Assembly (NCBI GenBank): GCA_016699595.1
Contig: CP064982.1
Coordinates: 643,118 to 707,117 of the forward strand
DNA length: 64,000 bases
Reading direction: 5' to 3'
Origin: a bacterium
GTDB lineage: Bacteria; Patescibacteriota; Dojkabacteria; GCA-016699595
Shown: positions 3,729 to 57,899 of the stretch, piece by piece
Numbering within the stretch: position 1 is the first letter of the stretch
How the letters are laid out: the number at the start of each line of letters is the position of its first letter
Notes under the pieces: generated by a model
The model's database searches: none
The model's input: only the letters and a program-made list of their open reading frames with translations
Told to the model about the DNA's origin: nothing
Made by a program: the position numbers and the translations under genes

Positions 3729-3765
3729 TCCTAAATTTTGATTAATTTTTGCTGATCAAACAATG

Positions 3766-4770
3766 TCAAAAACCTGCAGCCTTTCTTGTTTCCTTAATAA
3801 CTTCTGATATAAGTTTTTCATCAGATGAGAACTTATCTTTCATTGCTTCTTTCCCATTCGCGAGTTTTTCATCTTTGAAGCTAAACCAAGATCCAGACTT
3901 TGTCAAAATACTTTGAGATACAGCTGCATCTATAAGAGAAGAGATTTTGTCAATTCCATTTGGATATATCATATCAAATTCTGCTTCTTTGAATGGTGGG
4001 GCCATTTTATTTTTAATGACCTTGACTCTGCAAACATGACCTATGACTTGATCACCTTTTGAAATTTTCTCTATCTTTCTTATGTCCAACCTTACAGAAG
4101 CGTAAAACTTCAAAGCATTACCTCCAGTAGTGGTTTCTGGATTGCCGAACATTATTCCAATTTTCATCCTGAGCTGATTTAGAAAAACAATTGTAGTTCC
4201 GGCCTTACTTGATATAGAAGTTACCTTTCGCAATGCTTGTGACATCATTCTCGCTTGTAAACCCATGTGACTATCTCCCATATCACCTTCGATTTCTGCC
4301 TTTGGTGTTAGCGCGGCCACCGAATCAACGACTATAATATCAAATGCACCAGATTGAACGAACTTTTCCAATATGTCAAGACCTTGTTCTCCATAATCTG
4401 GTTGCGACAGGTACATATTATCTACATCAACTCCTATATTTTTTGCATAATTTACATCAAGTGCATGCTCTGCATCAATGAATGCTGCAACTCCACCTTT
4501 CTTTTGTGCCTCTGCAATTATATGCAGTGCTAGTGTAGTTTTGCCAGAACTCTCTGGACCATATATTTCAACAATCCTACCTCGCGGAATTCCTCCAATA
4601 CCCAGAGCAATGTCAAGTGATAAAGCGCCAGTAGATATCGCTTCAATATGCTCAATAGGTTTATCACCTAGTTTCATAACCGCTCCTTTGCCATATGATT
4701 TTTCCACTACACTCAATGTAGCTTCAATAGCTTTAAGTTTATTTGAGTCAATTTTTACTTTATCTGACAT
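3766..4770 (-). CDS. recA: recombinase RecA
   Basis: The conserved block [49 protein letters not shown] aligns with RecA from the Met at 4770. The ORF track extends to 4842 through an upstream in-frame Met. The stop codon is TGA. Confidence 0.95.
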
Positions 4771-4795
4771 ATACTTTTTGTTTATTAAGTTTGTT

Positions 4796-7126
4796 TTAAG
4801 AATGATTAATATTTGCTTGCCTCTTATACAAGGAAATTCCAAAACTAAATATTATTGAAGATAATATCAGATTTGGCAAACTACTTGCACCAGTTTCTCC
4901 TAGTATAGCACCTCCATCACCATTTCCTGTATCTGTCACTCCCAACACCGCAGGATTTGTTACAGTAACTGTATCTGAACTTGTATTATTAGCAGGATCT
5001 AGATCGCCACAAGCAAAGTAAACAGATGCTACATTCGTTGATGTTGTTTGAGTTTGATTTGTTATACTTACATTTATATTTATTTGAGATACTTCATTCA
5101 ACTGCATCGACGAATTTCTTGTGCAAGTAACATTTTGACCAACTGCTCCACAAACCCAACCGTTACCAGCATATGATAAAAATTGCATACCTAAAGGCAA
5201 TGTATCATTCACAATAATCGGTCCATTTGCTACATTGGGACCATAGTTACTCACTGAGAGTGTAAATGTTCCTGATTGGCCTTTCACGAAATTACCTATA
5301 TGAGATTTGATTAAGTTCAAGTTAGTATTCAGACAAACATTTCCAGCGCTAGATGTTGAATTTGTGTTTGCAGTTTGTGTACCTGCTACGTCCCCACTAC
5401 TGGTAGTAGTGACTGTTAGTGAAGAAGTATTTGCAACTTGAGTAGTATTTGTACTATTTACAGTATTAGTAGAAGCATTCGAAACTGAGGATGACATTGA
5501 TCCTGATTCACTAGTATTAGTTAAGTCGGAGGTATTTTGACTTGCTACACTTGATAACGAGTTGGTTGCTGAAGAACAGCTGCTTTGACACCTCACGCAA
5601 TTATTAACAATATTATTAATATTCTCAATATTTAGATTGTTATTATTGCCTATTATATTTATGTAAAAAACAGTAGTAGTCGCCATGTTTGAACAAGAAT
5701 TCTGACAAGTCATTTGATTACAAGTATTTTGCGAGCCAGCTATTTCTGATGAAATTGTACTAGTAGAATTTGCAGATATTGATGTACTTGTAGCTGTCCC
5801 TACTGAACTAAGTGTAGAATTACTTGTTGCAGAAGAATCTAAACTACTTACACTTGTACTGTTGATTTGAGTTGATGTATTACTAGATGTTGTAGAGCAA
5901 GAGCAATTACTAATTGTTGAACATTGAGCTTCATTCTCACAATTATTACAACAAGAATTTCCACAATAGTTATTCTCAAAGTGTTGATTTACTTCATTAT
6001 CATCACCAATAACAACTGCACCTTGAAAATTACCGCCGAAGTTGATATTTATTGGGTAAATCGAATTTATAGATGTTGAAGCGAATTGCGATGTTGAGGA
6101 GGTCATTGTAGAAACGGTAGAAACCGAACTAGTAGAAGATCCTGAACTATTCATACTACTTAGAGTCGAAGTCACAGTAACTGCACTTGATGCTGAGTCA
6201 GATGAAGTACTTGCTGTACAAACATTTGCAGTGACTAGTGTAGGGCCTATAAATGATATATTTTCATCAGTACCTTGTGTTGAAGATATACCTGCTACTT
6301 CGAACGGTAGTTCACCTTCTACATTTGTACTATTGACCGTATCATCGTCCCCAACAATTACAAGCATTTTTGATACTTTCGTTGAATCATCGGCTAGAAA
6401 TCCAATCCACCTTGTTGTTTTATTTCCACAACCTACATAATAGTTTTCTGAACTAGTCGAACCACACAGAGATTGATTTGAAGTACTTGTCGCTATGTTG
6501 GCATTTCCAATCTCATCATTGTCTTCATTATAATATTTAACAAATGCCAATGCTCCACCAAATACATCTGGATTTCGCGTTTCAAGATCTCCGAACCATG
6601 TACCAAATGCACTTACTGGACTAGAAAAACTAAACAAAAATCCAATTCTATTTCCATCTTCTGCATTTAGCAATTCATTTACATAACAACTATTATCCAC
6701 AAGGGATTGTGGTCTTGGAGAACTATCTTGAAGTATACTAGAATTTCCACATCCTGAAACTTTGCTATTCCAGTCACTGGTTCGATTTATCATATTCTGC
6801 GTCGAATCTATTTCAACAACCTGAACATGAACAGAAACTCCGTTTGCAACTACTAAATTTGTACCATCAAAAGAGTCATTTAGCAGTTTACGAGTGATCA
6901 GTGTTGAATTCTCTCCGTTGCATTGATACAATTCAGTTACATCTGAATACCACTCATTGTCTAAATCATCAACAGCACTGCGTATTGACTGTGTATTTGA
7001 ACCATTACCAACTTCATTGGATATATAGGATGTTACTGCAGCTTGAGATTGAGACGGAAACAAAATCGTGAATGCAGAAAAAAGCAAAAATGTATACGAT
7101 ATTGTTTGGACAGTTTTTTTGAACAT
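4796..7126 (-). CDS. large secreted Ser/Thr-rich, Cys-rich surface protein with a DUF11-type repeat domain and a C-terminal LPN-type anchor
   Basis: Signal peptide [29 protein letters not shown]. Long S/T-rich tracts. Cys clusters ([18 protein letters not shown]). DUF11-like segment [49 protein letters not shown]-terminus ...[25 protein letters not shown]. Confidence 0.7.
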
Positions 7127-7185
7127 AATAAAGTTTTCTACCTAACAAACTTGGGGAACTTGTTCGGCAGCTAATAAATAAATTG

Positions 7186-9417
7186 TTAATTTGATCTTTC
7201 AACTTTTTCTATAAATTGAATATCCTTTTTTAATGTATGTAAATTCATTTTTGTAACTATTGATAATACAAAGATCAATCCTACGACAAAAAATACAAAA
7301 CCCTTTTTCGAACTATCAGTAATTGCTGAGTTTGGTAATGTACTACTCGAAGTTATATTCACTGAACTAGCCAAACTTGTCAGTAATGAACTTCTTGTAT
7401 CACTCATGGATGATGTACTAACCTCACTTGAAACTGAACTAGACATTGAAGTGATATCGGTACAACTAGCAGAACAATTTACACTCAAACCACCATTGAC
7501 TCCATTGCATGACCAATTCGCTGTTCCATTATTAAATGTTGAAATATTACTTGATACCCCCTTTTGACATAAATCATATAAAGCTCTTGAACAAGAACCA
7601 ACTGAACCATTTGCTCCTCCGCAAAGACCATCGACCGGAGTACTAACTACATCGATATTCCACCCGTCACAATTATCGTAGTTATCATAGTTATTGACTG
7701 TATTGATAGGGTTGGAAACTACATCACAATTAATGTCTGTAGTATCAATTTCTCCACCTCCTGAGACACTAGCTACGTTTGAAATATTACCAATAAATCC
7801 TGTGTTTATGTTTGCAACAACTGTAATTATGGAATTTTGATTCACTCCTAATGCTTGACTTCTTGTACATGTAATATCATTACCTACATTACTACAATTC
7901 CAGTTAGTTCCACTAGCACTAACGAAAGTCAGTGTAGAAGGAAGATTTTCTGTAACTACTATTGGACTATTTGTTGCAACCTGACCTACATTCAGAACCT
8001 TAAGTTGGTAACTTACTTGTCCGCCTGTGGTGACATTTGTATCTGAAGTCTTTTGTATTATCAAATTTGGGTACTGAGCAACTGGAGTACTAGTAGTTGA
8101 GCTAGTTGCTGGTGTACTTGTTGGTGTTGAGCTTGAGACTGGGTTACTGCAACTAGCAGAACAATTTGCACTTGTTCCACCATTTGTTCCACTGCATGTC
8201 CATGAAACAGTTCCATTGGAGAACGTAGGATTTGCAGGATTTGCTGTCCCCTGTGCACATAGTGGTGTGAGAGTTCTGCTACATGATCCACTAGTTCCAT
8301 TTGCACTTCCACATACTCCATTGACTGGAGTTGGTGGTTTCAAACAACTAGCAGAACAATTTGCACTTGTTCCACCATTTGTTCCACTGCATGTCCATGA
8401 AACAGTTCCTCCATTTTGTGGGTATGAAATTGTTTCACTACCAGCATTACCTGGGTTACATAGATCTCCTGTAGGTATACTAGTGCCACATGTCCCTGTT
8501 CCTCCATTTGCACTTCCACATACTGCATTTATTGGAGTTTGCGTAATTGTCAGCGTCCAACCGTCACAATTATCTTGATTATTATCATTATTACTGTCAT
8601 TATCACCTTCTAGGTCTGCATCGCATGCCCAGTCAGTAGTATCACCATCTGTTGTATCGGTTGAATCTATAATTCTTGCATGGTCAACAATAGTATGGTT
8701 TACTGGTGCATTATCATTGATCTTCACATATACCTTTACAACTGTATCCCATACATTTATTGAAGGTACATATTGTTTTGTCGTTGTACATACTACTCTA
8801 TGATTTGGATTGTTGGGTGGATTTGGATCGTACTTTGTACATGTCCATCCAGTTCCTGCTACTAGTGATTGGTATGTATAGTATTCTCCTTGGACGGGTG
8901 CTTCTAGAACTGTAATTGTTCCATTTGTAGAAGCATTACCTATATTTGATATTTTCACTGTGTATTCAATTGTATCACCTGCTTTTGCTGAGCTTGCATT
9001 ACCTTGCTTTTGTATTATCAAGTTTGGCTTTGTAACAACTTGTGTACATGATTTGCCTGTTGTACACATAGCAGATACTGTCATTCCATCGGACGGTCTT
9101 GCTAGATTACAAGATACACCTGAGTTGGTAACGTATCCACTAGGTTTATATTCGGTAACATCAATTATTCCCCAGTCTAGTTGAACAGATCCACATCTAT
9201 CATATGGAGCTGTAGAGTTCATTGGATAATTTCTCCCGACTGTAATATTTTTTGTTTCTCCTGCTTGTAGCGTGATCTTTTGAACTGATTTATCGTTTTG
9301 GCCTGGATTTTGATCGCATGAGAAGTATTGATTATCTTGATCATCCCAGTGACTACCGTATTGTGACATACAAGAGTATGTCATTGATTCATTGTGGCAG
9401 TTTACCGTATCTAACAT
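7186..9417 (-). CDS. large Cys-rich repeat surface protein (two DUF11-like domains, three ~60-aa six-Cys repeats, S/T stalk, LPNSA + TM anchor); probably the 3' part of a frameshift-split gene
   Basis: Repeats of the form ...CGSANGGTGTCG..LCNPG..GTVSWTCSGTNGGTSANCSASC occur three times. DUF11-like blocks: GDTIEYTVKISNIGNAST.. and GGQVSYQLKVLNVGQVATNSPIVVTENLPSTLTFV.. C-terminus: SSSTLPNSAITDSSKKGFVFFVVGLIFVLSIVTK. No signal peptide at the annotated Met, and a TAG lies in frame just upstream. Confidence 0.65.
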   Translation of the reverse strand: MLDTVNCHNESMTYSCMSQYGSHWDDQDNQYFSCDQNPGQNDKSVQKITLQAGETKNITVGRNYPMNSTAPYDRCGSVQLDWGIIDVTEYKPSGYVTNSGVSCNLARPSDGMTVSAMCTTGKSCTQVVTKPNLIIQKQGNASSAKAGDTIEYTVKISNIGNASTNGTITVLEAPVQGEYYTYQSLVAGTGWTCTKYDPNPPNNPNHRVVCTTTKQYVPSINVWDTVVKVYVKINDNAPVNHTIVDHARIIDSTDTTDGDTTDWACDADLEGDNDSNNDNNQDNCDGWTLTITQTPINAVCGSANGGTGTCGTSIPTGDLCNPGNAGSETISYPQNGGTVSWTCSGTNGGTSANCSASCLKPPTPVNGVCGSANGTSGSCSRTLTPLCAQGTANPANPTFSNGTVSWTCSGTNGGTSANCSASCSNPVSSSTPTSTPATSSTTSTPVAQYPNLIIQKTSDTNVTTGGQVSYQLKVLNVGQVATNSPIVVTENLPSTLTFVSASGTNWNCSNVGNDITCTRSQALGVNQNSIITVVANINTGFIGNISNVASVSGGGEIDTTDINCDVVSNPINTVNNYDNYDNCDGWNIDVVSTPVDGLCGGANGSVGSCSRALYDLCQKGVSSNISTFNNGTANWSCNGVNGGLSVNCSASCTDITSMSSSVSSEVSTSSMSDTRSSLLTSLASSVNITSSSTLPNSAITDSSKKGFVFFVVGLIFVLSIVTKMNLHTLKKDIQFIEKVERSN
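8110..8540. repeat. two tandem ~195-bp (65-codon) near-identical repeat units inside the surface-protein gene, with a third diverged unit near 7440-7640
   Basis: A 64-nt identical stretch, aactagcagaacaatttgcacttgttccaccatttgttccactgcatgtccatgaaacagttcc, occurs at ~8151 and ~8347. The repeats also generate mirrored spurious ORFs on both strands (8061-8321, 8216-8578, 8340-8528). Confidence 0.75.
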
Positions 9418-26377: not shown

Positions 26378-26920
26378 CGTCGTATTTTAGCATATCTAGC
26401 AAATTTATATGTAACAAGATCCATTCTGGGAAATATCAGTATATTTATAAACAAACCTAATTAAGATTGTCAATATAAATCAACTTAAAAAGATATTTTT
26501 ATCCAAGCATTATTTTCATAATTCTTAGAATATTTTTTACATTTATAAACACTGCATTGAAATTTAAATTTGACAATGTTTGCATAATCCACAGTCATAA
26601 TGACTAAAAGTTTGCATTTTTATTTTGTAAAACAAAATAAAAAATTTTCTCATTTTTTACTTGCAATCATTTCAAAAATTTTGTAAAAATGTATTGGGAT
26701 CTTTTAAGTATAACTTAGTTACTAAATCTAGAAATTACTCAAGGCAATTTATTGCCACACAAGACTTGAAGGATTCAAGTTGCTTGTGTAATTTAAAAGA
26801 AAGATCAAAATTATTTTTGATAACTTTTATAGAATAATTATTTGGATTTTGTATAGACTAGTCGATAATGAAATGCGCAATCATTATTTATCGTAACTAA
26901 TGTGGTTTTAACTTAGGGAT

Positions 26921-26990
26921 CCCACACTGCCCAACTGTTACACGCCCCACCGAGACTGCCAGACTGCCTTTACTGCCAAACTGCCCAATT
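26921..26990. repeat. GC-rich island with five copies of ACTGCC at 8-10 bp spacing, abutting the DnaA box
   Basis: cccacACTGCCcaACTGttacacgccccaccgagACTGCCagACTGCCtttACTGCCaaACTGCCcaa. Local GC is >50% against a ~30% background. Confidence 0.6.
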
Positions 26991-26991
26991 T

Positions 26992-27000
26992 TGTGGATAA
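26992..27000 (-). promoter_or_regulatory. perfect DnaA box (TTATCCACA on minus strand) ~85 bp upstream of the dnaA start
   Basis: The plus strand reads tgtggataa. Confidence 0.6.
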
Positions 27001-27083
27001 CTTTTTGGAAAAATGCTATTCTACATCATTCGTTTATGACAATAGTTAGTTCTATAACATACAGATATTTACTTACCTAAAAC

Positions 27084-28445
27084 TTGGACTTATCGACAAT
27101 TTGGAAAAAAACACAAACTCAGCTTGAAATCAGACTTGAACCTAGTACATATAATAGATTTTTCAAGTACACTGAATTGAAAAAAATTGATGAAGGTACT
27201 GCGATAATTGGTACCCATTCGACTTTTAGTTCAAACATTTTACAGACAAAACATAAAAAAACTATCAGCGATTTGCTTTCAATAAATTACGGAAAATTGC
27301 TCAAAGTTAAGTTTGAAGTTGATCCTGACATGGTAGACTTAGCAACTAAAGATAGATCTACTCTTTTAGTTGATGAGCTTCCTATTTTCCAAACGAATGC
27401 AAACCCAGACCTAACTGCGAAACTTGGCTACTGCAACCTGAATTCAAAGTTCACTTTTGACAATTTCATTGTAGGTGATTCCAATAGACTTGCTCATGCA
27501 GCTGCAACTTCGATTTTGAACAAAAAAAACAGGTTTAATCCCTTTTTTATATATGGAAAAACCGGACTTGGAAAAACTCATCTAGTTCAAGCAATTGGAA
27601 TATCTTTTCTTGAAAAAGATTTGTCTAAGAAAGTTCTATATGTTCCTTCAGAAACTTTTTTAAATGATTTAGTTCGATCTATTCGAACACAAACTACTCT
27701 TGATTTTCGAAAAAAATACAGAGAACTTGATTTGTTGATAATTGACGATATTCAATTGATTTCAAAATGGGTAGAAACACAAAATGAATTTTTCAATACT
27801 TTCAATGTGTTGAATTTGTCAGACAAACAAGTTATCTTGATTTCAGACAGACCACCAGAAGAGATCCAGAATTTAGAAGATAGGCTTAAGTCTAGATTCC
27901 AAGGAGGACTGTCTGTTAGTATTAGCGAACCAGAGCTTGAAACGAGATACGCTATTTTGTTGCAAAAACAAAAAGATCTTGAAACCAACTTAAGAAATGA
28001 GATCTTAAGAGATATAGCACGGATAGTTACTACAAATATCCGAGAACTTGAAGGTGCTTTGACTAAAGTCAATCTTATGCAATCACTCAAAGACTCAGAT
28101 TTGACAAGTGAGGAAGTTGCATCGATTTTGGGAAAAGAACATTCAGAGCGTAAAATCGCCAACCCGAATGATGTCTTGAGAATAATTGGAGCAGAGTATG
28201 GCGTAAGTTTACAGGAATTGAAGTCTGAGAGACGCACTGCCAATATCGCATTTGCTCGCCAGATCGCTATGTATATATTTGCAATAGAATTAGGTTTCAA
28301 ACTAGAGAAAATTGCAGAAATTTTGAAAAGGAAGGATCATACTACAGTTTTGCACGGTCGAAATAAAATAGAAACTCAAATGAAAATGGATGCTGGACTT
28401 CGAAGTAGAATTGAAAAAATTACCAATCAAGTCTTTTATAATTAA
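27084..28445 (+). CDS. dnaA: chromosomal replication initiator DnaA
   Basis: Walker A NPFFIYGKTGLGKTHLVQAIG, AAA+ motifs (LLIIDDIQ), and a C-terminal DNA-binding helix-turn-helix region ..ANIAFARQIAMYI..HTTVLHG. The start codon appears to be TTG. Confidence 0.95.
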   Translation: MDLSTIWKKTQTQLEIRLEPSTYNRFFKYTELKKIDEGTAIIGTHSTFSSNILQTKHKKTISDLLSINYGKLLKVKFEVDPDMVDLATKDRSTLLVDELPIFQTNANPDLTAKLGYCNLNSKFTFDNFIVGDSNRLAHAAATSILNKKNRFNPFFIYGKTGLGKTHLVQAIGISFLEKDLSKKVLYVPSETFLNDLVRSIRTQTTLDFRKKYRELDLLIIDDIQLISKWVETQNEFFNTFNVLNLSDKQVILISDRPPEEIQNLEDRLKSRFQGGLSVSISEPELETRYAILLQKQKDLETNLRNEILRDIARIVTTNIRELEGALTKVNLMQSLKDSDLTSEEVASILGKEHSERKIANPNDVLRIIGAEYGVSLQELKSERRTANIAFARQIAMYIFAIELGFKLEKIAEILKRKDHTTVLHGRNKIETQMKMDAGLRSRIEKITNQVFYN

Positions 28446-37247: not shown

Positions 37248-38255
37248 TTGAAGGTAATTTCATTGATGCAAATTCTCAACTATTCACCACAAAACCCAGA
37301 CTTAACTTCAAAAAAGTTTGTATTCATCATAGGATCTCGCAAAATTACACAGAAAAGAATTATTGAACTGTTTATGAAATACGATACTTCTGTGTCTTCA
37401 ACACATCTCCCTTCTGAAGGGAGACAAAATACGCAGATTTTATGGGGAATTCTGAATGAAAAGTATATCAAAGGACTTGAAAATTCACCTCAATTCGAAA
37501 GTATGCAACTTGCATATTTAACTACTACTTTTGAAAAGTTTGCAAAGAAGTATCCTAAGTACAATTTAGACAATTTAACTATTCTCAAATATAATTTTGA
37601 TAATTGGAAAGATATTTTGCAAGAACTTGATTTTGAAAAAGTTATTTTGATAAATGCTTCATGGCACAGATCATTTCATAGAAGAGCTGAATATGAAATT
37701 TTGAAATCTCGCAACATTCCCTATCAATTTTCTAGTTCTTATTTTTCAGATGAAGAAGCAAAGTTAGATTCAAATGTTGATTATTCAAAGTTAGATAAAC
37801 TTATTGGAACTGAACTTCTTGAAACAGATACAGAATCTATTTGGAATATATTAAATGAGATCAAAGTTTATTCTTATGATCATCTTTTTCAAACGAGTTG
37901 CTTGATTTTGAATGATAATCAAATTCTTTCTTGGGGAGTAAACAAGATAATGCCTTATGAAACTTATGATTTTCATCATGTAAGTTCAAATGAAAAAATG
38001 CTAACTCCGATGAATAGTAGTGATGCACAAGATACAATTCATGCTGAGATGAATGCAATTTTGAAAGTTGGAAACAAAGATGACCTGAAAGGTGCAAAAT
38101 TATTTATAGAACTTATGCCATGTCCGTGGTGCGCTAAAGTGATAGCTGAAAGTGGAATCGGTGAAGTTAGTTGCAAACTAGTGCATAATGGAGGACATGC
38201 AGCAGAGCTATTTAAGGAAATGGGGGTGAGGATGAAGGTAATTAGAGAAATGTGA
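37248..38255 (+). CDS. cytidine/dCMP deaminase-family protein with a ~220-aa N-terminal domain of unknown function
   Basis: The C-terminal part SCLILNDNQILSWGVNK..HAEMNAILKVG..KLFIELMPCPWCAKVIAESGI has the H-A-E and P-C-x-x-C zinc motifs of the CDA fold. Confidence 0.65.
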   Translation: MKVISLMQILNYSPQNPDLTSKKFVFIIGSRKITQKRIIELFMKYDTSVSSTHLPSEGRQNTQILWGILNEKYIKGLENSPQFESMQLAYLTTTFEKFAKKYPKYNLDNLTILKYNFDNWKDILQELDFEKVILINASWHRSFHRRAEYEILKSRNIPYQFSSSYFSDEEAKLDSNVDYSKLDKLIGTELLETDTESIWNILNEIKVYSYDHLFQTSCLILNDNQILSWGVNKIMPYETYDFHHVSSNEKMLTPMNSSDAQDTIHAEMNAILKVGNKDDLKGAKLFIELMPCPWCAKVIAESGIGEVSCKLVHNGGHAAELFKEMGVRMKVIREM

Positions 38256-38270
38256 TTTCTGGTATAAATT

Positions 38271-39851
38271 ATGTCTTATCCAATCTTTTATAAAGAACAA
38301 CTCACAATTGGAAACCTGAATTCCAATGTCGGAATTGTTACCCTTTGGACTCCGAGGCAAACTTTTACTTCTAGACTTGATCCAAGTTCTTTTGCAATTT
38401 GTGGGCAACTTTATTCAAAACGAGGAATCAACTATATCATCCGAAACATTTTGGCAAATCCCATTATAGATACTTTGATAATTTGTGGAGCAAATAGATC
38501 AGAAAGTGCAGAAAGTTTGAAAAACTTTATAGATCTAGGAATTGATGAAAATCATAATGTCAAATCTTGCGAAAAATCTCCGGTTGACAAAGAAATTACA
38601 AAAGAATATTTAGAACTATTTAGAAAGAATATAAAGTATATTGATTTAACTGGCGAACTTAAGGCGAGTGAAATCCAAAAGAAATTAGATGAAATAAATA
38701 AAAATAATAATAACACTGAAATTAAACATTGGGCAGAACCGAAAGAATTTCCTATAGCTGAAGCTGAAACTGCAAGTGAATTTCCCAGTGAACAAAATGT
38801 TTTTAGTATTCGATCCGAATATGTAGATGAAGCTTGGATTCAGATTTTGAGACACATCATGAAGTTTGGAGAAGATAGTTATATGCTTTCAGGTGCTAAA
38901 GTGAAAGTTTTGAGTAATTTGATAGTTACAATTTCAAAAGAAGATCCAGATAAACCAGAACTTCCTGATTTTATGACTTTCAATCAAGGTGACCTCAAAC
39001 TTTATTACAAAGGTTTTTTTGAAAAAACTAAACAAAGTGAAGATTATGGGTATGGTGAGAGAATGTTCAATTATCCAAACCCACTGCAAGCCCCCATTGA
39101 AAAGGGGGAAAGTCACGAAGTGAGTGGGGGTTTACTTCTCAATCAAGTTGAAATAATTTACAAAAAACTCAAAGCTAGAAAATATGATGCGGGAGCAATT
39201 ATATCTATTTGGAATCCTTGGATTGACAATGGATCGTTTTTGAAATATTCAAATAATAGTGATAATGGAGTTCAACAAGTGAAACCCCTACAAACTCAGA
39301 ATGTTCCTTGTATGACACAACTTCAATTTTCTTATGTCAATCACAAGTTAAACCTAACTGCATACTTTAGATCAAATGATATGTTTGACGCATGGCCTAG
39401 AAATACTTTCGCACTTAGAAAACTTCAAATGATGCTTGCAACAAAACTTGGGATGAAAGTTGGTGAACTTACAACAATTTCAAATCTGGCTCAAATATAT
39501 GAACTGAATTATCAAAATGCAGAAGAAGTTATCAAGAAATTTGAAAACAAGATGTTTTGTATGCAAGATAAAAGAGGAAATTTGATAATGGAAATCGAAG
39601 AAAGAAATGGAGAACTTTTTATAATTGCAAAGCATATGAGCCGTGACGGAAACGAAGTTTTGCAAGCTTACTCAATTAATGGTAATGATACAAACTCAGC
39701 TCAAAAACTAGGTGATATCTTACTTTCAAATTTAGTTATCTCAGATCTTTCGCACAGCATGGATATTGGACGTGAACTTATGAAAGCAGAAATTGCAATT
39801 AAGTCAGGCAGGGCAAAAAATTATCAGCAGGATAAAGGCTTGGATCTTTAA
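38271..39851 (+). CDS. thymidylate-synthase-superfamily protein with an MtrA-like N-terminal domain and a C-terminal extension
   Basis: ThyA-family blocks: ISIWNPW, VPCMTQLQFSYV (nucleophile Cys), YFRSNDMFDAWPRNTFAL (Arg and Asn177 equivalents). GD(A/T)HxY is replaced by SNLAQIY. The N-terminal VGIVTLWT..AICGQLYSKRGINYIIRNILANPIIDTLIICGAN resembles the MtrA motif [38 protein letters not shown], recalled from memory. Confidence 0.55.
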   Translation: MSYPIFYKEQLTIGNLNSNVGIVTLWTPRQTFTSRLDPSSFAICGQLYSKRGINYIIRNILANPIIDTLIICGANRSESAESLKNFIDLGIDENHNVKSCEKSPVDKEITKEYLELFRKNIKYIDLTGELKASEIQKKLDEINKNNNNTEIKHWAEPKEFPIAEAETASEFPSEQNVFSIRSEYVDEAWIQILRHIMKFGEDSYMLSGAKVKVLSNLIVTISKEDPDKPELPDFMTFNQGDLKLYYKGFFEKTKQSEDYGYGERMFNYPNPLQAPIEKGESHEVSGGLLLNQVEIIYKKLKARKYDAGAIISIWNPWIDNGSFLKYSNNSDNGVQQVKPLQTQNVPCMTQLQFSYVNHKLNLTAYFRSNDMFDAWPRNTFALRKLQMMLATKLGMKVGELTTISNLAQIYELNYQNAEEVIKKFENKMFCMQDKRGNLIMEIEERNGELFIIAKHMSRDGNEVLQAYSINGNDTNSAQKLGDILLSNLVISDLSHSMDIGRELMKAEIAIKSGRAKNYQQDKGLDL

Positions 39852-51810: not shown

Positions 51811-52101
51811 TTACAAACCAAGTTCCTTAATTACTTTGGAATGTAACTTTGAGTCAGTTTTCTTAAGATATTCTATCAACCTTCTTCTTTGACCAACCAT
51901 CTTCAAAAGACCTCTTCTAGATGAATTGTCCTTTTTATGGACCTTTAAATGCTCTGCTAGGCTAGAGATCTTTTCGGAAAGTTTAACGATTTGGACTGAA
52001 GGGGATCCAGTATCAGTCTCATGTAGTCTAATTTTTTCAATAACTGACATGGTATCCTTTTGAGTTGTACTTTTTGTTGTTTTCATGAAATTATACGCCA
52101 A
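51811..52101 (-). CDS. rpsO: 30S ribosomal protein S15
   Basis: [55 protein letters not shown] is a near-canonical S15. The true start is probably an internal Met (MKTTKS). Confidence 0.9.
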
Positions 52102-52180
52102 TCAAGCAGAAGGCAGATAAACATCCACTTGAAGGTAAAAATATTTAGTAGATTATACCAGAGATTTCTAATTTTTCAAT

Positions 52181-52609
52181 TTATTCTTGACAGGCAGTAT
52201 TTAATGGAAGTTCGTCAGCCATCCAAGAAAGATATCCAAAGGCTTCTCCCAAGGTTAGTTCTGGTTTATTGTTTTGTGCTGTTGAACATGCACTTGCTAC
52301 ATCATAAACTCGTCCTCTGCATTCATTCTTCCAGTAAAATTTTCCTTCTTCGCTTAAGACATTATTCCAGCAAACTGCTTTGTAGTCTGTTTCAAGAATT
52401 TCAGATTCATTTTCTTTTTCTGAATTTGCATAATATGATGACTTTTTCGAATTATATGCATCCATAACTTTTTGAATATTATCATCTACCTTCGCTGATG
52501 TCCTGTTATCAAGACTTGGACCTAGTAAGTTATAAAGTATCAATCCAGTAAGTATTGTTATGGTGACAAGTAACACAAAGGCTATTGATTTATTTAGTGA
52601 GTTTTTCAT
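52181..52609 (-). CDS. N-terminally anchored or secreted small Cys-containing protein (142 aa)
   Basis: Signal/anchor IAFVLLVTITILTGLILYNLL, with four Cys in the exported domain. Last gene of the co-oriented small-membrane-protein array. Confidence 0.45.
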   Translation of the reverse strand: MKNSLNKSIAFVLLVTITILTGLILYNLLGPSLDNRTSAKVDDNIQKVMDAYNSKKSSYYANSEKENESEILETDYKAVCWNNVLSEEGKFYWKNECRGRVYDVASACSTAQNNKPELTLGEAFGYLSWMADELPLNTACQE

Positions 52610-52631
52610 ATTTTAATATAAAATAAAATTA

Positions 52632-53006
52632 TTAATTACAAATTGTAGGAAAAATGAAATCAAACTTGATCTGTTTTCCATTTACTATACTAGTATTTTT
52701 GTCAAAACAGTTTGCTGGATCTTTGATACCTACAATAATTGCAAATGTGCTTACTATAAGCCAAGCAAAAAAAGTTACAATTATCCTAATAATTGGTGCA
52801 AACAAAGTTCCTCTAAGTAATTCTGAATAATTCTTCACAGAATCAGTATTCACAAGATACTGAATAACTCTCAAAGAAATCTGAACCGTTGACAAAAAGA
52901 TCGACAGCGTCATCATTGCACCTATTGCATACTTGATGACTGTTTGTATTTCTGACAAAGCTGGAAACATATGTAGAAGTGTAAAACAAAAAAAAAAAGA
53001 AGTCAA
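52632..53006 (-). CDS. small membrane protein (124 aa), TM-loop-TM hairpin plus Cys-containing tail
   Basis: AIGAMMTLSIFLSTVQISL - loop - APIIRIIVTFFAWLIVSTFAIIVGI, then ..CFDK..PTICN. Confidence 0.45.
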   Translation of the reverse strand: MTSFFFCFTLLHMFPALSEIQTVIKYAIGAMMTLSIFLSTVQISLRVIQYLVNTDSVKNYSELLRGTLFAPIIRIIVTFFAWLIVSTFAIIVGIKDPANCFDKNTSIVNGKQIKFDFIFPTICN

Positions 53007-53049
53007 TCTAAATTGATTGACTTCTTAAAAAGAATTGATTTATCTCAGC

Positions 53050-53556
53050 TTAAATATTACATTCACCGTCACCTCCAAGTAAACAATTTACAAAATCATT
53101 TACATTTTGGTTCTCACCTAAATCTGCGTTTTGTATATTCATTGCATAAAGTGCCACTGCACCTACAAGAACAAATCCAAATAACAAACCTGCCATTGTT
53201 GCAAAATTCTTTGTTCTCTTTATTGCTGCTTCTTTGCTTTTTTCATCGTCAGATTTTCTCATGTTTGACAATATACCCAAAACTGTCAAAACAACTGCTA
53301 CTGCAAACATTATGACGATTACCCATGTTGCAACTGTCTTTCCTACATTGAAAGTGGTTTCCACTGCACCACCTGGATTTGTAACAATCGTTTCACCTAA
53401 TTTATTTGAACACATACTTTCTAAAATAGGAATCCCTTGAAACAAACATGATTGTGCTTGAGTTGACTCAGCAAAAACTGTAGGTACCGAAAGAGAAAAT
53501 AAAGCCATGACAAAGGTCACAACCATCATTACTTTTGTTGAAATACTTTTATACAT
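53050..53556 (-). CDS. small membrane protein (168 aa): signal peptide, Cys-containing ectodomain, TM-loop-TM hairpin
   Basis: Signal MMVVTFVMALFSLSVPTVFA. Hairpin TWVIVIMFAVAVVLTVLGIL-SNMRKSDDEKSKEAAIKRTKN-FATMAGLLFGFVLVGAVALYA. Paralogous to the 202-aa protein (loop motif R.SD.EKS.E.A.K). Confidence 0.5.
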   Translation of the reverse strand: MYKSISTKVMMVVTFVMALFSLSVPTVFAESTQAQSCLFQGIPILESMCSNKLGETIVTNPGGAVETTFNVGKTVATWVIVIMFAVAVVLTVLGILSNMRKSDDEKSKEAAIKRTKNFATMAGLLFGFVLVGAVALYAMNIQNADLGENQNVNDFVNCLLGGDGECNI

Positions 53557-53617
53557 ATATTTTTGTCCTAGAAATCAGTTTTGATTCTAGCAATTTTTCA
53601 TTTAATAATTTTGTTAT

Positions 53618-54226
53618 TTATTTACAAACTGTTTCATTGCAAGCATCCAAACAGCCTTGGTATTCTACTTGTGCTGCTGGAGTTCCTGCTAGTGATCCAG
53701 TCAAAATCTTTGCACATTCGTTTTGACAACGTTCACACATTGTATATCCTCCACCACCTTCACACCCAGCCGGCAATGTTTCGTTCCTTCGAATATAATA
53801 TATGGCCATATTACCATTGTCACAAACTTGAAATGCATTTACTTTCATTCCTTTACCAATTGTAGCATAAATTGCTAAATTCATCAATGGAATAAATAAT
53901 ACTATAAGTAATATCATAGTTACAAGTGATTTTACAACTTTTTTTGCCTTTTCTGGAGACTTTTCATTGTCTGACTGTCTAGCTAGATTCAATATCTTGA
54001 CAATCTTTGCAGTAAATAGAAAAAGTATAAGTCCAAGTATAATTATCTTCACAACCTCTAAACCTGCTACTATAACTAAACTACTTGCATCGTTTGAAAG
54101 CAAGCTATACCCCGGCAACATTTTCGAGAGCAAGGTTGTGGCCTTAGCATCTCCAAATATTTGAGTAACCAAGTCAGTTGTTGAAGCTAATGCTAGGAGT
54201 TTATTAAAAATATTTATCGGTGCCAT
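53618..54226 (-). CDS. small membrane protein (202 aa): TM-loop-TM hairpin plus a C-terminal 9-Cys domain
   Basis: VIVAGLEVVKIIILGLILFLFTAKIV-KILNLARQSDNEKSPEKAKKVVKS-LVTMILLIVLFIPLMNLAIYA, then ..VCDNG..GCEGGGGYTMCERCQNECAKIL..GCLDACNETVCK. Confidence 0.5.
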   Translation of the reverse strand: MAPINIFNKLLALASTTDLVTQIFGDAKATTLLSKMLPGYSLLSNDASSLVIVAGLEVVKIIILGLILFLFTAKIVKILNLARQSDNEKSPEKAKKVVKSLVTMILLIVLFIPLMNLAIYATIGKGMKVNAFQVCDNGNMAIYYIRRNETLPAGCEGGGGYTMCERCQNECAKILTGSLAGTPAAQVEYQGCLDACNETVCK

Positions 54227-54255
54227 TTTATTTTCTGTTATTTAATGTGAATTGA

Positions 54256-54861
54256 TCAAAGTCTAAATCCAACTTGCCAAAAGTAACCTAAATCTGCTAA
54301 CTTGGTAAAGACAGATGCAACAATTACAAAAATTCCCAACCCAAGTAATACTGAAATCTTGTACTTGCTACTCTTCATAAAGTTTTCCATACCCTTCTCT
54401 TCATCAAATCCAACTATAAATATATCATAAAATACCTTCAAAATCAGAATAACTATTATTGCCGAAACTACTATAAAAGCTATATCTGCAAATATTCTTC
54501 GTACTGTGAAGTTAAATGCTTCGTTACCTGCTTCATAACTTCCTGTTGCACTGTTGCATTGAAACCTAGTACAGGCGACATCATACTTAATCCTCCAAAA
54601 ATCATTGTAAAAGCTATCAAACCCAGTAAATAGTATATTATTTTTCAAATTAATTTGTGTTTGTATGTTATTTGAGTCTGAGTTCAGACATTCCGCCCAA
54701 GATATATATGAACCATCGTCTTTCAAACATGTCCCTTTATCAACTGCGTTTAAATTGCTAGAAAAAACTACAAACGCAAAAATTGTAATTGCTAAGAATA
54801 AAAATGCCTTTGTTGGTTTGAATAAGTAAAATTTTATATCAAGAAGATTCTTCATTTTCAT
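54256..54861 (-). CDS. small membrane protein (201 aa): signal peptide, 4-Cys ectodomain, TM-loop-TM hairpin
   Basis: Signal AFLFLAITIFAFVVFSSNLNA. Ectodomain ..GTCLKDDGSYISWAECLN..VACTRFQCN. Hairpin IAFIVVSAIIVILILKVFYDIFIV-GFDEEKGMENFMKSSKYK-ISVLLGLGIFVIVASVF. Confidence 0.5.
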   Translation of the reverse strand: MKMKNLLDIKFYLFKPTKAFLFLAITIFAFVVFSSNLNAVDKGTCLKDDGSYISWAECLNSDSNNIQTQINLKNNILFTGFDSFYNDFWRIKYDVACTRFQCNSATGSYEAGNEAFNFTVRRIFADIAFIVVSAIIVILILKVFYDIFIVGFDEEKGMENFMKSSKYKISVLLGLGIFVIVASVFTKLADLGYFWQVGFRL

Positions 54862-55226
54862 TATGTAATCAAATTTGCAGGAACACCTAAGACTGCAAGA
54901 ACCAACGCTATCAAAACACTACCAAATAACGCTACTCCTAATAATATTATTTTGAATCCTATTGTCGAATAGAACTTTTTTCTAGATTCTGGACTATAAT
55001 TCGATGATAACAGTCCAAAACCAGCAGTTAAAATTATACTTACAAATGTAAATATGACTACCATTGGCAATATCAATGACGAAAACCTGTCTATCAATTG
55101 AGGAATACTATCAATCGCTAATGGATTTTTGACTTCAAGACTTGCTGCCACCAATCCTTTTTGAAAGAATACAAACAACAATAAAGTAGTAGTTGATATT
55201 TTTAATTGTTCAATGACTTTGTACAT
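54861..55226 (-). CDS. small membrane protein (121 aa): signal-like segment plus TM-loop-TM hairpin, no Cys
   Basis: TTLLLFVFFQKGLVAAS; then LILPMVVIFTFVSIILTAGFGLL-SSNYSPESRKKFYST-IGFKIILLGVALFGSVLIALVLAVLGV. A VirB2/TrbC-like topology. Start overlaps the stop of the next gene. Confidence 0.5.
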   Translation of the reverse strand: MYKVIEQLKISTTTLLLFVFFQKGLVAASLEVKNPLAIDSIPQLIDRFSSLILPMVVIFTFVSIILTAGFGLLSSNYSPESRKKFYSTIGFKIILLGVALFGSVLIALVLAVLGVPANLIT

Positions 55227-55246: not shown

Positions 55247-56380
55247 TTAATCAATTCTCATCGTCATTATCAAATGAAGATAGTTATCTTCCCCATAAAA
55301 TAGTGCTGGAGAATTGGCATTTTTTGTTTGGAATATTATATCATCTTTTGAAAAACATCTCAAAGCATCTTGCAAGTACTTTAGATTGAATGCAATATCT
55401 AGTTCCTCTTGTCCTTGGTTTTCAACGATCATTGTTGTTTCAATTTTACCTTTCTCAATATCTGTTGAAAAAATTTTTAAATTCTTTCCTCTTAGTGAGA
55501 GTATAGTTTTATAACCAAGTAGATTTCTTGACACATTATTTACAATTTTCAAATTCATCAACATCTCATCTCTATTGAAAATAAATTTGTAACTTTCTTC
55601 TGTTGGAATTAAACTTTTGTAATCTGGGAAATTTGCATCAATTATTCTTGCAAAACAAGATATCTCATTCTTTTCAACAATTCTAAACTCAACTTGACTT
55701 AAATTTCCTTCTTTATCATCTATTGGGTATAGTTTTACTTGGTCAAAATCAAAATCAAGTAACGATTGAAATATTGATGCGTTTAATATAAATGGCTTTT
55801 TCAATTTTGACATTGTAGAAACTTCTAATTTGGCTAATCTAAAACCATCTACTGAAACAAGATGCACATTTTCTTTATTATCACTATTTAGAAAATCAAA
55901 GTAAATGCCCTCTAGTGCTGGTCTTGAAGGATCTTGTGATATTGAACTCAATAGTTTATCAACAATATTTTGAACTTCTTGCCTACTTAGTGTCATAAAG
56001 TTATCTTGGAAACTTTTGTCAAAGCTTGGAAATTCGTTTGACTCAGAAATACTAAAGTCTCCACTTGCAAAGTTTGTTTTCATCTCTAATTTATTTTTGC
56101 CAAAGTTCAACTCAACATCAACTTCTGGCAGTGAGCTTAGAAAACCTAGAAAATCTTTTGTTCCAATTGCAAAACTATCAAAACTTTCTAAGTTATCAAT
56201 TTCTGAAAAAGTATAAATAATTGATTTTTCAAGATCTGTTGCTTTTATTTGCAATTTACTTTCTTCAAATGAAAAAATGAGTTTTCCAAGTGAAGAGTCT
56301 ATCATCTTTGTAGATGAGAACTTTGAGATAGATACTAGTATCTTGGTTAATTTTGATGATGAAAATTTGAGTTTAGACAC
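55247..56380 (-). CDS. dnaN: DNA polymerase III beta sliding clamp
   Basis: N-terminus ..SKLQIKATDLEKSIIYTF and C-terminus YLQDALRCFSKDDIIFQTKNANSPALFYGEDNYLHLIMTMRID fit the DnaN pattern (YLlDaL...MPmRl). 377 aa. Confidence 0.8.
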   Translation of the reverse strand: MSKLKFSSSKLTKILVSISKFSSTKMIDSSLGKLIFSFEESKLQIKATDLEKSIIYTFSEIDNLESFDSFAIGTKDFLGFLSSLPEVDVELNFGKNKLEMKTNFASGDFSISESNEFPSFDKSFQDNFMTLSRQEVQNIVDKLLSSISQDPSRPALEGIYFDFLNSDNKENVHLVSVDGFRLAKLEVSTMSKLKKPFILNASIFQSLLDFDFDQVKLYPIDDKEGNLSQVEFRIVEKNEISCFARIIDANFPDYKSLIPTEESYKFIFNRDEMLMNLKIVNNVSRNLLGYKTILSLRGKNLKIFSTDIEKGKIETTMIVENQGQEELDIAFNLKYLQDALRCFSKDDIIFQTKNANSPALFYGEDNYLHLIMTMRID

Positions 56381-56760
56381 TTTGATTTGTTAAATTAATA
56401 TAATGTAAATTAATTAAATAAGATAAGTATTTTTATTAGAGACTGTATATATGTGCATAAGTCAATAATTATGAAACAGTAAATTACTTTGACCTATTTT
56501 AACATCTACATTTCTCAAAAACAAAAGTTATAGAAAAGTTTGTAGACAAAAGTTTATTATTAGTATATCTAGATTTTGTTAAGTATATATAAGGTAGTTT
56601 TCAAAGAATAAGAAGTTTATATGTCAATTACATTGTGGATGTAATTTTAAGTTGGTGTATAAAAGCTAAGAAAGTTAATTATGAAATAATATTCAAAAAG
56701 AGAAAGAAAGGAAAGTAAACATAAACTTTTATAAAGAAGAAATTTCACAATAAAGAAATT

Positions 56761-57198
56761 CTATAATTTCTTAGGATCAAATTGTTCAAAGCCAAAGTCC
56801 TTTGGTTGAAAAGTTAACAAGATTAAGTCATCAACAGATAAAACCTGACTTTTACTTTCCAAGTTATTCTGAACAATTGGTGGAATAGAAACATTATTAG
56901 TCAACCCATTAGCAAAATCAGACTCTAAAGAAACGGATGTACTTGAACTACCAGCTTGACCACTGTCAATGTTACCCATAGATATTAAATTATCAACTGA
57001 GAAATCTACTTGGGTAAGTTCAAAATCAAACTTCTCTTTGTCATTTTTTGCCCAAAAAACTTTGTGATTTAGGTCAACGAGGTCTTGTGTCAACTTAATC
57101 ATACTTTTAGTAATTTGAGTTTTCGTATTTACAAAAATATTCATATTAGATAAATTAAATATTGTAACTGAAAGGTTTGTTAATCTCTCCTCCACCAA
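56761..57198 (-). CDS. hypothetical protein (145 aa)
   Basis: ORF overlapping the upstream secreted-protein gene by 19 nt. No recognisable motif. Confidence 0.3.
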   Translation of the reverse strand: MVEERLTNLSVTIFNLSNMNIFVNTKTQITKSMIKLTQDLVDLNHKVFWAKNDKEKFDFELTQVDFSVDNLISMGNIDSGQAGSSSTSVSLESDFANGLTNNVSIPPIVQNNLESKSQVLSVDDLILLTFQPKDFGFEQFDPKKL

Positions 57199-57899
57199 AG
57201 TGCAAACTTTTTGAATAGAAAGATAAACAAAAAAATCAAAATTATGAACCCAAAGAACTTCAAACCGAATTTAATTCTTTCCCAAGTTTGATAATTTTTC
57301 TTAAATTCATCACTTTGAGGTGTAACTTGCAAATCCTTGTCAAAGTTAATAGTAATTGAAGTTACATCTGTTAAAGTCAAATCATTTTGCCAAGCTTGAC
57401 CATATATGTATATAGTTGTTGAACCTGACTTCTTGGGATATACATATAGTACAAAAGATTTTTTATCACCAATCTTCAATTTACCAACAACATTATTTGG
57501 AATAGACAATTCAACACTACTTTTATCGGGAGAAATGATATAGCTCAATTCAAACCTGTCAGTATCAATGAAAGATTCAATATTTAGTTCAATAGGTACT
57601 TTCAAAGAAAAAATATCTTGAATTCCTGGTTTTATTTTTAGAGAAAAACTATTTCCAGTACTATCTTTGATTACAAAATTTCCCTGGTTAATACTTGTTG
57701 AACTTGAATTCATCAATGGGTCTTCAGTTACTGAACTCGCTGAAACAATTGAACTATTAGTTGTAGAGACAAGCTCTTCTGCCGAGGTTTGTGAAGTAAG
57801 ACCCCATGCAGGCGTTACAAACAAACAGAACAACAATGTTGTTAGAAATATATATTTTTTCATATTAACTATATCATATAAAGGTAAAACAAACGTCAT
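57180..57899 (-). CDS. secreted protein with a C-terminal TM anchor (239 aa), hypothetical
   Basis: Signal peptide MKKYIFLTTLLFCLFVTPAWG (internal start likely). C-terminal FFGFIILIFLFIFLF plus KKFALWWRRD. Confidence 0.45.
   Translation of the reverse strand: MTFVLPLYDIVNMKKYIFLTTLLFCLFVTPAWGLTSQTSAEELVSTTNSSIVSASSVTEDPLMNSSSTSINQGNFVIKDSTGNSFSLKIKPGIQDIFSLKVPIELNIESFIDTDRFELSYIISPDKSSVELSIPNNVVGKLKIGDKKSFVLYVYPKKSGSTTIYIYGQAWQNDLTLTDVTSITINFDKDLQVTPQSDEFKKNYQTWERIKFGLKFFGFIILIFLFIFLFKKFALWWRRD

Follow-up and report, generated by a model that had tools for sequence, protein, structure and literature searches.

A survey of 3,035 Patescibacteria genomes with the profiles PF04956, PF18895 and CONJScan (hmmscan independent E-value, i-E, below 0.001 and more than 50% model coverage) found VirB2-like pilins of type IV secretion systems (T4SSs) in 1,948 assemblies, near virB4 in 1,135 of them and not near it in 813 (PMC12102498). 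In 383 assemblies the pilin genes form arrays, 441 in number and 2–11 genes long, one array of six being reported; identity within arrays has a mean of 25% and a maximum of 54%, non-pilin genes sometimes interrupt the series, and dnaN and dnaA rank among the genes most often found close to virB4 (PMC12102498). The described arrays include the series of Candidatus Southlakia epibionticum ML1 and the “Sec secreted array” of TM7x (PMC12102498, PMC10633639, PMC12857230), and in S. epibionticum ML1 the predicted pilin series, which belongs to a T4SS cluster, is essential (PMC10633639; PMC12857230). Here we describe six small genes, A–F, between dnaN and rpsO on the chromosome of a dojkabacterium (Patescibacteriota; assembly GCA_016699595.1, contig CP064982.1), in a stretch of 64,000 nucleotides (positions 643,118 to 707,117) that we call the window. 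The letters follow the order of the genes along the minus strand, from dnaN to rpsO.

Like the described patescibacterial arrays, the locus is a tandem series of co-oriented small genes (six here) with very low identity between neighbours, which a non-pilin gene can interrupt (F here). It also shares with them the combination of a signal peptide with two hydrophobic helices and a basic loop, and a chromosomal position near the replication gene dnaN in a sub-megabase, low-GC genome. The host, an ultra-small bacterium, has a genome of 761,814 bp (0.76 Mb) with the standard genetic code, and the window has a GC content of about 32%; these values, like the activated-sludge origin and the gene content, agree with Patescibacteria, whose means are 919 +/- 256 kb and 33.6 +/- 6.7% GC. 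The locus differs from the described arrays in several respects: its proteins score below the cut-offs of PF18895 and PF04956, B, C and D (168–202 amino acids, aa) carry additional Cys-rich outside modules, and T4SS machinery is absent from the 52 kb on one side and the 8 kb on the other that the window covers. The host genome does not appear among the entries of those supplementary tables of the survey that were accessible (PMC12102498).

More distant systems show some of the same traits. TrbC/VirB2 pilins (PF04956; Agrobacterium VirB2, RP4 TrbC, F TraA) likewise have a long signal peptide and two helices that form a hairpin around a basic loop, and A (121 aa) is of their size. Unlike them, the array belongs to a presumably monoderm host (theirs are diderm), has no VirB5, VirB1 or VirB4 context and includes several paralogues with ectodomains. 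Mbov_0395 and MMCAP2_0565 of Mycoplasma integrative and conjugative elements (ICEs), the proteins behind model NF045849, belong to organisms that lack a wall or are monoderm and that have systems of the MPF-FATA type; no ICE context exists here. Bartonella and Anaplasma have tandemly amplified and diversified VirB2 genes, a process proposed to vary the cell surface and host interaction (cited in PMC12102498), but their paralogues are readily recognisable as VirB2 and lie in T4SS loci of diderm animal pathogens.

The reading that we favour, and that we hold with even confidence, is that the array is a chromosomal tandem set of highly divergent VirB2/TrbC-like T4SS pilin paralogues. It is probably a very divergent case of the pilin arrays already described in Patescibacteria, its membership being unproven, and the original prediction, which was made from the sequence of the window and held that it may be a lineage-specific envelope or appendage system, therefore overstated its novelty. 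The distinctive feature of the array is its Cys-rich modules.

Architecture of the array proteins

Transmembrane (TM) helices and topology were taken from hydropathy and charge counts, and signal peptides were judged by inspection. A, B and D consist of a signal peptide, an outside segment, a first TM helix, a K/R-rich loop, a second TM helix and an outside tail. A two-TM hairpin of this kind is also present in C and E, though without a clear signal peptide. The signal peptides of A, B and D are Sec-type, with n-h-c structure and A-x-A-like sites, and the inter-helix loops hold 3–7 K and R residues. By hydropathy and charge counts, the traits of a VirB2-type protein, namely signal peptide, two hydrophobic helices and short basic loop, are thus found in the array. 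A–E form a tandem series of five hairpin genes, in which C and D are 32% identical and identity between the other pairs is undetectable; each is a putative pilin gene.

A is the minimal pilin-like protein of the array. Its signal peptide (..GLVAA↓SLE) is followed by a short outside segment with NPLAIDSIPQLIDR, the first TM helix, the loop SSNYSPESRKKFYST and the second TM helix, and it contains no Cys. An AlphaFold2 model shows a helical hairpin (helices 41–76 and 79–113; predicted local distance difference test score 63). In B, the signal peptide (..NLNA↓VD) precedes an 82-aa outside domain with four Cys and then the hairpin. C has the hairpin loop RQSDNEKSPEKAKKVVKS and a 79-aa C-terminal outside tail with eight Cys. 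D combines a signal peptide (..TVFA↓ES), an outside segment with two Cys, a hairpin with loop RKSDDEKSKEAAIKRTKN and an outside tail with two further Cys. E has two TM helices joined by the loop RVIQYLVNTDSVKNYSELLR; its outside tail measures 30 aa and holds two Cys. F departs from this plan: a single N-terminal TM helix, either an anchor or an uncleaved signal, is followed by a 112-aa outside domain with four Cys, and there is no hairpin.

The Cys counts of A–F are 0, 4, 8, 4, 3 (2 from the ATG start of E) and 4, not 2–9 per protein as first stated. Each of the 22 Cys of B–F is located in a predicted outside segment; every Cys-bearing segment has an even number of them (4; 8; 2+2; 2; 4), and helices, loops and signal peptides are free of them. 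This distribution supports the topology and suggests that the outside Cys of B–F may be disulfide-bonded. The proposed architecture of a signal peptide, a Cys-bearing outside module and two TM helices around a basic loop agrees with both hydropathy and Cys positions.

B and D have a common motif just after the signal peptide, Cys-Leu followed by 10–11 residues and a second Cys (CLKDDGSYISWAEC, CLFQGIPILESMC), and the B-orthologue of a relative described below also carries it (CFDKTTGQFTTWSEC). The motif hints at a relationship between B and D in the region outside the hairpin.

Two-TM hairpins are common to VirB3/PrgI-type proteins as well; VirB3, though, does not typically have a cleavable signal peptide or Cys-rich domains on the outside. 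That the array encodes such small inner-membrane secretion or competence subunits, VirB3/PrgI-like or other two-TM accessory proteins, and not pilins, strikes us as improbable: patescibacterial T4SS loci do encode a number of small membrane proteins without an assigned role, PrgF and TrsJ among them (PMC12102498), but no family of this kind was matched in Pfam or NCBIfam.

Type IV pilins and pseudopilins were also considered and rejected. The six N-termini lack the class III motif G↓F/M-x-x-x-E, F included, whose single N-terminal helix was inspected for it, and there is no N_methyl or pilin match in Pfam.

Resemblance to pilin families

The clearest link to known pilins comes from the orthologue of A in the relative L004, a metagenomic contig described below. 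Its top NCBIfam match is NF045849 (E 1.6e-5, 24.5 bits, model positions 8–77 of 80), and its top Pfam match is PF18895, T4SS_pilin (E 2.6e-4, 21.4 bits, model positions 8–67 of 71). A third alignment, with PF04956 (TrbC/VirB2), is weak and nearly full-length (protein 3–112, model 7–96 of 98; 16.8 bits), and its E-value of 8e-3 is within noise. All three matches fall below the curated cut-offs (40 bits for NF045849, 26.6 for PF18895 and 27.9 for PF04956), and pilin models come out on top in two independent libraries. By the thresholds of the published survey (PMC12102498), the A-orthologue would count as a VirB2-like pilin through PF18895, taking its whole-protein E-value and single matched stretch, and none of the six window proteins would. 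NF045849 is also the top or second NCBIfam match of A (E 0.0047, 16.6 bits) and C (E 0.004, 16.8 bits).

Noise was gauged with reversed sequences. In reverse, A, C and the A-orthologue matched no pilin model. Reversed D matched NF045849 with E 0.0077, better than forward D (0.081); we therefore discard the forward D match, and conclude that the model attracts generic hairpins. Reversed D also matched DctQ (5.5e-4), and forward C matched a nematode G protein-coupled receptor family (3.4e-4). The NF045849 match of the A-orthologue clears the resulting noise floor by a factor of 30 to 100.

A number of results weigh against a pilin identity of the array. The noise floor for such hairpins is itself high, at about 5e-4 to 2e-3, so that the PF18895 match of the A-orthologue is marginal, barely above noise, and the remaining matches are noise. 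In Pfam, NCBIfam and PHROGs none of A–F reaches a curated cut-off, that of a pilin family included, and E and F match no family at all. A has no PF18895 or PF04956 match at E <= 1, and P0002, a 95% variant of A, has lost the NF045849 match; D scores 11.5 bits with PF18895. Sequence searches of the PDB returned only noise (rhodopsin, K2P channel and ClpC), and neither they nor the fold searches retrieved a pilin structure, the structure models being of low confidence and the fold searches unspecific. At 168–202 aa, B, C and D are long for VirB2 precursors. Profile, hhalign and decoy tests link B, C, D and E neither to A nor to the pilin models, and hhalign gives the A family and C/D a probability of 1.6%. 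Finally, VirB4, VirB6, VirB3, VirB8 and the type IV coupling protein (T4CP) were all missing among the scanned open reading frames (ORFs) of at least 120 aa in the window. That no secretion ATPase lies next to the array had been noticed before; none was found elsewhere in the 64 kb either. The VirB2/TrbC resemblance proposed originally thus gains some support from the top matches of the A-orthologue and from the published arrays, but no cut-off is reached.

Within the array, C and D are paralogues by their sequences (blastp E 8e-8, 32% identity over 90 aa) and the sole demonstrated homologous pair, as had been proposed for the 168-aa and 202-aa proteins; their loops had been quoted correctly. 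A C/D profile gives B about 10 bits and A a score below zero. For a decoy test, all 270 ORFs of the window and their reversed copies were searched with the A-family and C/D profiles. With the A-family profile, D, C and E took places three to five, after a decoy in second place, and with the C/D profile reversed D (18 bits) and reversed C (17 bits) both exceeded B (11 bits). Since decoys match or beat the cross-hits, the likeness of A, B and E to C/D is one of topology. The hairpin core thought to be conserved in four or five proteins is therefore supported by sequence for C and D, but in A, B and E by topology only.

These results bear on the main alternative reading, in which the genes encode lineage-specific, fast-evolving, hairpin-anchored envelope proteins unrelated to T4SSs, which would remain in the membrane and display disulfide-bonded modules at the cell surface without forming filaments, for example as adhesins or envelope organisers. 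VirB2 proteins are not known to carry Cys-rich modules; matches to pilin models all stay below cut-off and close to decoy noise, and the window is free of T4SS genes. Relatives are also scarce: a full HMMER search of 1.84 billion representative proteins with the C/D core profile returned only fragments of C/D themselves, and word-indexed searches with A and D returned only the organism itself or a 95%-identical strain, D finding only itself. (A eukaryotic kinase match to the C/D profile was spurious, as it matched the charged loop.) On the other hand, the best matches of the A-orthologue in two libraries are all of the VirB2 type with a clean reversed control, and the array, a tandem run of divergent hairpin genes close to dnaN, resembles what has been published for Patescibacteria. 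We hold such envelope proteins to be possible, if rather doubtful. Unlikely, in our judgement, is the pair of bolder outcomes taken jointly: that the array is unrelated to VirB2, lineage-restricted, and builds or decorates an undescribed envelope structure, or that, if VirB2-like, it encodes the first pilins with fused Cys-rich modules serving as interchangeable host-recognition tips.

The weak matches of D to a PHROGs holin (0.021) and to Saf_2TM (0.08) point elsewhere again, to holins, membrane proteins of phages or mobile elements, two-TM defence effectors or bacteriocin/immunity pairs, among which small TM proteins are found. Both matches are within noise, holins would not be expected to have signal peptides or outside domains with Cys, and the window contains no lysin, phage, integrase or defence partner. 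Its GC content is uniform, the neighbours of the array are housekeeping genes, and synteny is kept in a relative whose DnaN is 49% identical. This origin is therefore very improbable. As specific candidates, a holin was rejected because D at 0.021 is the only PHROGs match and lysin and phage genes are absent from the window, and a defence effector because the Saf_2TM match is noise and no defence partner is present. Matches to holins or to another ordinary family, which the original prediction had named as counting against it, were not found in Pfam, NCBIfam or PHROGs.

Relatives, synteny and divergence

A search with dnaN yielded one informative relative (49% identity), L004 (JBEFFE010099057.1), a contig of 5.3 kb from the metagenome of a Korean biogas reactor. 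It retains the gene order ApbE, 106 aa, 228 aa, 158 aa, dnaN, after which come a 163-aa multi-TM protein, the A-orthologue and the B-orthologue. A is 34% identical to its orthologue (E 2e-13), and the N-terminal part of B is 30% identical (E 2e-11). The contig ends inside the B-orthologue, and the comparison covers the dnaN side, A and part of B. All four Cys of B have counterparts in the L004 sequence when the two are read side by side. By these alignments, conservation of the array as a block holds in one relative for A and B, together with dnaN and the flanking genes; the contig does not extend to where C–F would lie.

The block extends to two conserved genes upstream of dnaN (239 aa and 145 aa), neither of which has a Pfam match; their tie to the array is only positional. 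The 239-aa protein has a signal peptide, a Ser-rich stretch, a C-terminal TM anchor and a WW(K/R)RD tail, and is far better conserved in L004 than A or B. In L004, an additional gene for a 163-aa multi-TM protein separates dnaN from the A-orthologue; this gene is without a counterpart in the window, and its product matches nothing in Pfam, NCBIfam or PHROGs.

At shorter range, two strains with 98.1% nucleotide identity could be compared, the counts being small. Nonsynonymous and synonymous differences number 2 and 9 in dnaN, 7 and 5 in A, and 6 and 5 in the first 124 codons of B. At the protein level, A and B diverge faster than dnaN between these strains, as expected of surface-exposed variable subunits.

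Other searches for relatives returned little. Scans for dnaN, first with a single sequence and then with an alignment, in GTDB species representatives and JGI metagenomes gave nothing above 26% identity, the loci returned being unrelated and of higher GC content, and no plasmid matched the A-orthologue in a tblastn search. DNA identical to that of the window is present in reads from activated sludge of the Fredericia wastewater plant, Denmark.

A model for the array

Structures of the F-pilus and the T-pilus show how VirB2-type filaments are arranged: the subunit termini are on the outside and the basic loop is turned to the lumen. Applied to the array, the pilin reading suggests the following model. 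Sec would insert the hairpin proteins so that the basic loop is cytoplasmic and the N- and C-termini are both outside. A would be a plain pilin-like subunit, and B, C, D and perhaps E would be hairpins with disulfide-stabilised N- or C-terminal modules. Because the termini of VirB2-type subunits face outward, the modules of B–E would be displayed on the filament surface, where these proteins may serve as alternative or minor subunits for host-cell contact. F could play an accessory role, as an anchored or a secreted protein. To assemble, the subunits would depend on a machine of the VirB4 type, whose genes would have to lie in another part of the genome. Expression would proceed from a dnaN/A–D transcript, possibly also from a promoter inside dnaN, up to a terminator, followed by an E–F transcript.

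T4SS genes, a predicted pilin series among them, were found to be essential for epibiotic growth of the one genetically tractable patescibacterium. If the array proteins are pilins, this very divergent array extends the catalogue of patescibacterial T4SSs, and, if the model is true, it leads to a host-recognition hypothesis of variable surface modules on a common filament scaffold. Standard hidden Markov model cut-offs miss such genes in deep-branching lineages, and current counts of pilin arrays are therefore lower bounds. Taken alone, the array opens no new kind of biology.

Gene layout and transcription units

The six ORFs lie at the positions given originally (Table 1), tightly packed downstream of dnaN, and Pfam confirms dnaN and rpsO as their neighbours. 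We take A–F to be real genes because they are far longer than chance ORFs in a genome of 32% GC; A, B, C, D and F are annotated at NCBI as hypothetical proteins, and the protein accessions of the locus are QQR93476-QQR93482. From dnaN to rpsO, the intergenic gaps are 20, -1, 29, 61, 43 (78 with the ATG start of E), 22 and 79 nt. The single 1-nt overlap that had been reported is the one at A/B, where the start of B overlaps the stop codon of A.

The start of E needs comment. Its TTG codon at 53006 falls within the stem of an intrinsic terminator that follows D, and the gene call on a Logan contig begins at the ATG at 52970. Because of the position of the TTG in the stem, E probably starts at this ATG and has 112 aa. 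A TTGACT-17-TACACT element ends 7 nt before the same ATG and, if used, would yield a leaderless E–F transcript. A recognisable Shine-Dalgarno sequence precedes none of the six genes.

The terminator after D folds as RNA with -16.4 kcal/mol (z = -3.9 against shuffles). Promoter-like sites were sought by a consensus scan of a 6-kb region and scored by matches out of 12, and just two sites reached 11/12, one within the 3' end of dnaN and one directly before rpsO. The site in dnaN, about 110 nt upstream of A, is near-consensus with an extended -10 element and could be an internal promoter that drives the array independently of dnaN. The strong terminator after D and the promoter-like site of rpsO's own speak against a single operon bracketed by dnaN and rpsO, which had been assumed before. 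Judged from these signals, the transcription units are likely dnaN/A–D, then E–F, then rpsO; dnaN is probably co-transcribed with A–D, and rpsO is probably a separate unit.

Table 1. Positions of the array genes, their signals and other features, in window coordinates unless L004 is named.
Feature	Position	Strand	Length	Remarks
Gene A	54861-55226	-	121 aa	IPJ91_03475
Gene B	54256-54861	-	201 aa	IPJ91_03470
Gene C	53618-54226	-	202 aa	IPJ91_03465
Gene D	53050-53556	-	168 aa	IPJ91_03460
Gene E, TTG start	52632-53006	-	124 aa	
Gene E, ATG start	52632-52970	-	112 aa	
Gene F	52181-52609	-	142 aa	IPJ91_03450
dnaN (beta sliding clamp), upstream	55247-56380	-		Pfam DNA_pol3_beta, beta_2, beta_3; identical to NCBI QQR93482.1
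rpsO (ribosomal protein S15), downstream	51811-52101	-		Pfam Ribosomal_S15, E 1.4e-29
Intrinsic terminator after D	52997-53026	-		12-bp perfect stem, 6-nt loop, U11 tail
Promoter-like site in dnaN 3' end	55335-55363	-		TTGAGA-17-TG-TATAAT, 11/12
Promoter-like site directly upstream of rpsO	52152-52179	-		TTGAAA-16-TG-TATAAT, 11/12
Cys-Leu...Cys motif in B	54690-54735	-		
Cys-Leu...Cys motif in D	53440-53480	-		
Two conserved genes upstream of dnaN	56761-57899	-	239 aa, 145 aa	phmmer vs L004 proteins 2e-72, 4e-12
239-aa gene of this pair	57180-57899	-	239 aa	L004 counterpart at 1370-2056
Extra multi-TM gene of L004	L004:4073-4564	+	163 aa	
Non-coding stretch upstream of dnaN	56381-56760		380 bp	AT-rich
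DnaA-box-like 9-mer in this stretch	56452-56460			one mismatch
dnaA	27084-28445	+		
Probable oriC region	26378-28445			
DnaA-box-like 9-mers near dnaA	26585, 26992, 27090			26992 exact
Fusion gene	38271-39851	+	526 aa	
dCMP-deaminase-like gene	37248-38255			
DUF11-repeat and lamin-tail-domain proteins	2385-9417	-	776, 743 aa (DUF11)	recA among them

Other features of the window

The window is chromosomal in character. It contains the housekeeping genes recA, infB, cysS, dnaA, ssb, a comM-like gene, gatB, def, rpsO, dnaN, ftsA and ftsZ, as well as an extensive glycosylation cluster and genes for giant surface proteins with DUF11 domains. An Rfam scan of the window returned two tRNAs and nothing else.

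The non-coding stretch upstream of dnaN is unusually long for a compact genome and holds one DnaA-box-like 9-mer. dnaA itself sits at the minimum of the cumulative GC skew, with further DnaA-box-like 9-mers nearby, and the skew minimum together with these 9-mers indicates that oriC is probably located there. As dnaN lies 27 kb from dnaA and on the opposite strand, the usual dnaA-dnaN pair is split.

Two further loci were noted. Two DUF11-repeat proteins and a lamin-tail-domain protein, with recA among them, are probably surface proteins. Lastly, an unusual fusion gene joins an MtrA-like N-terminal domain to thymidylate-synthase-like and PterinBD-DUF4346 domains and adjoins a dCMP-deaminase-like gene.

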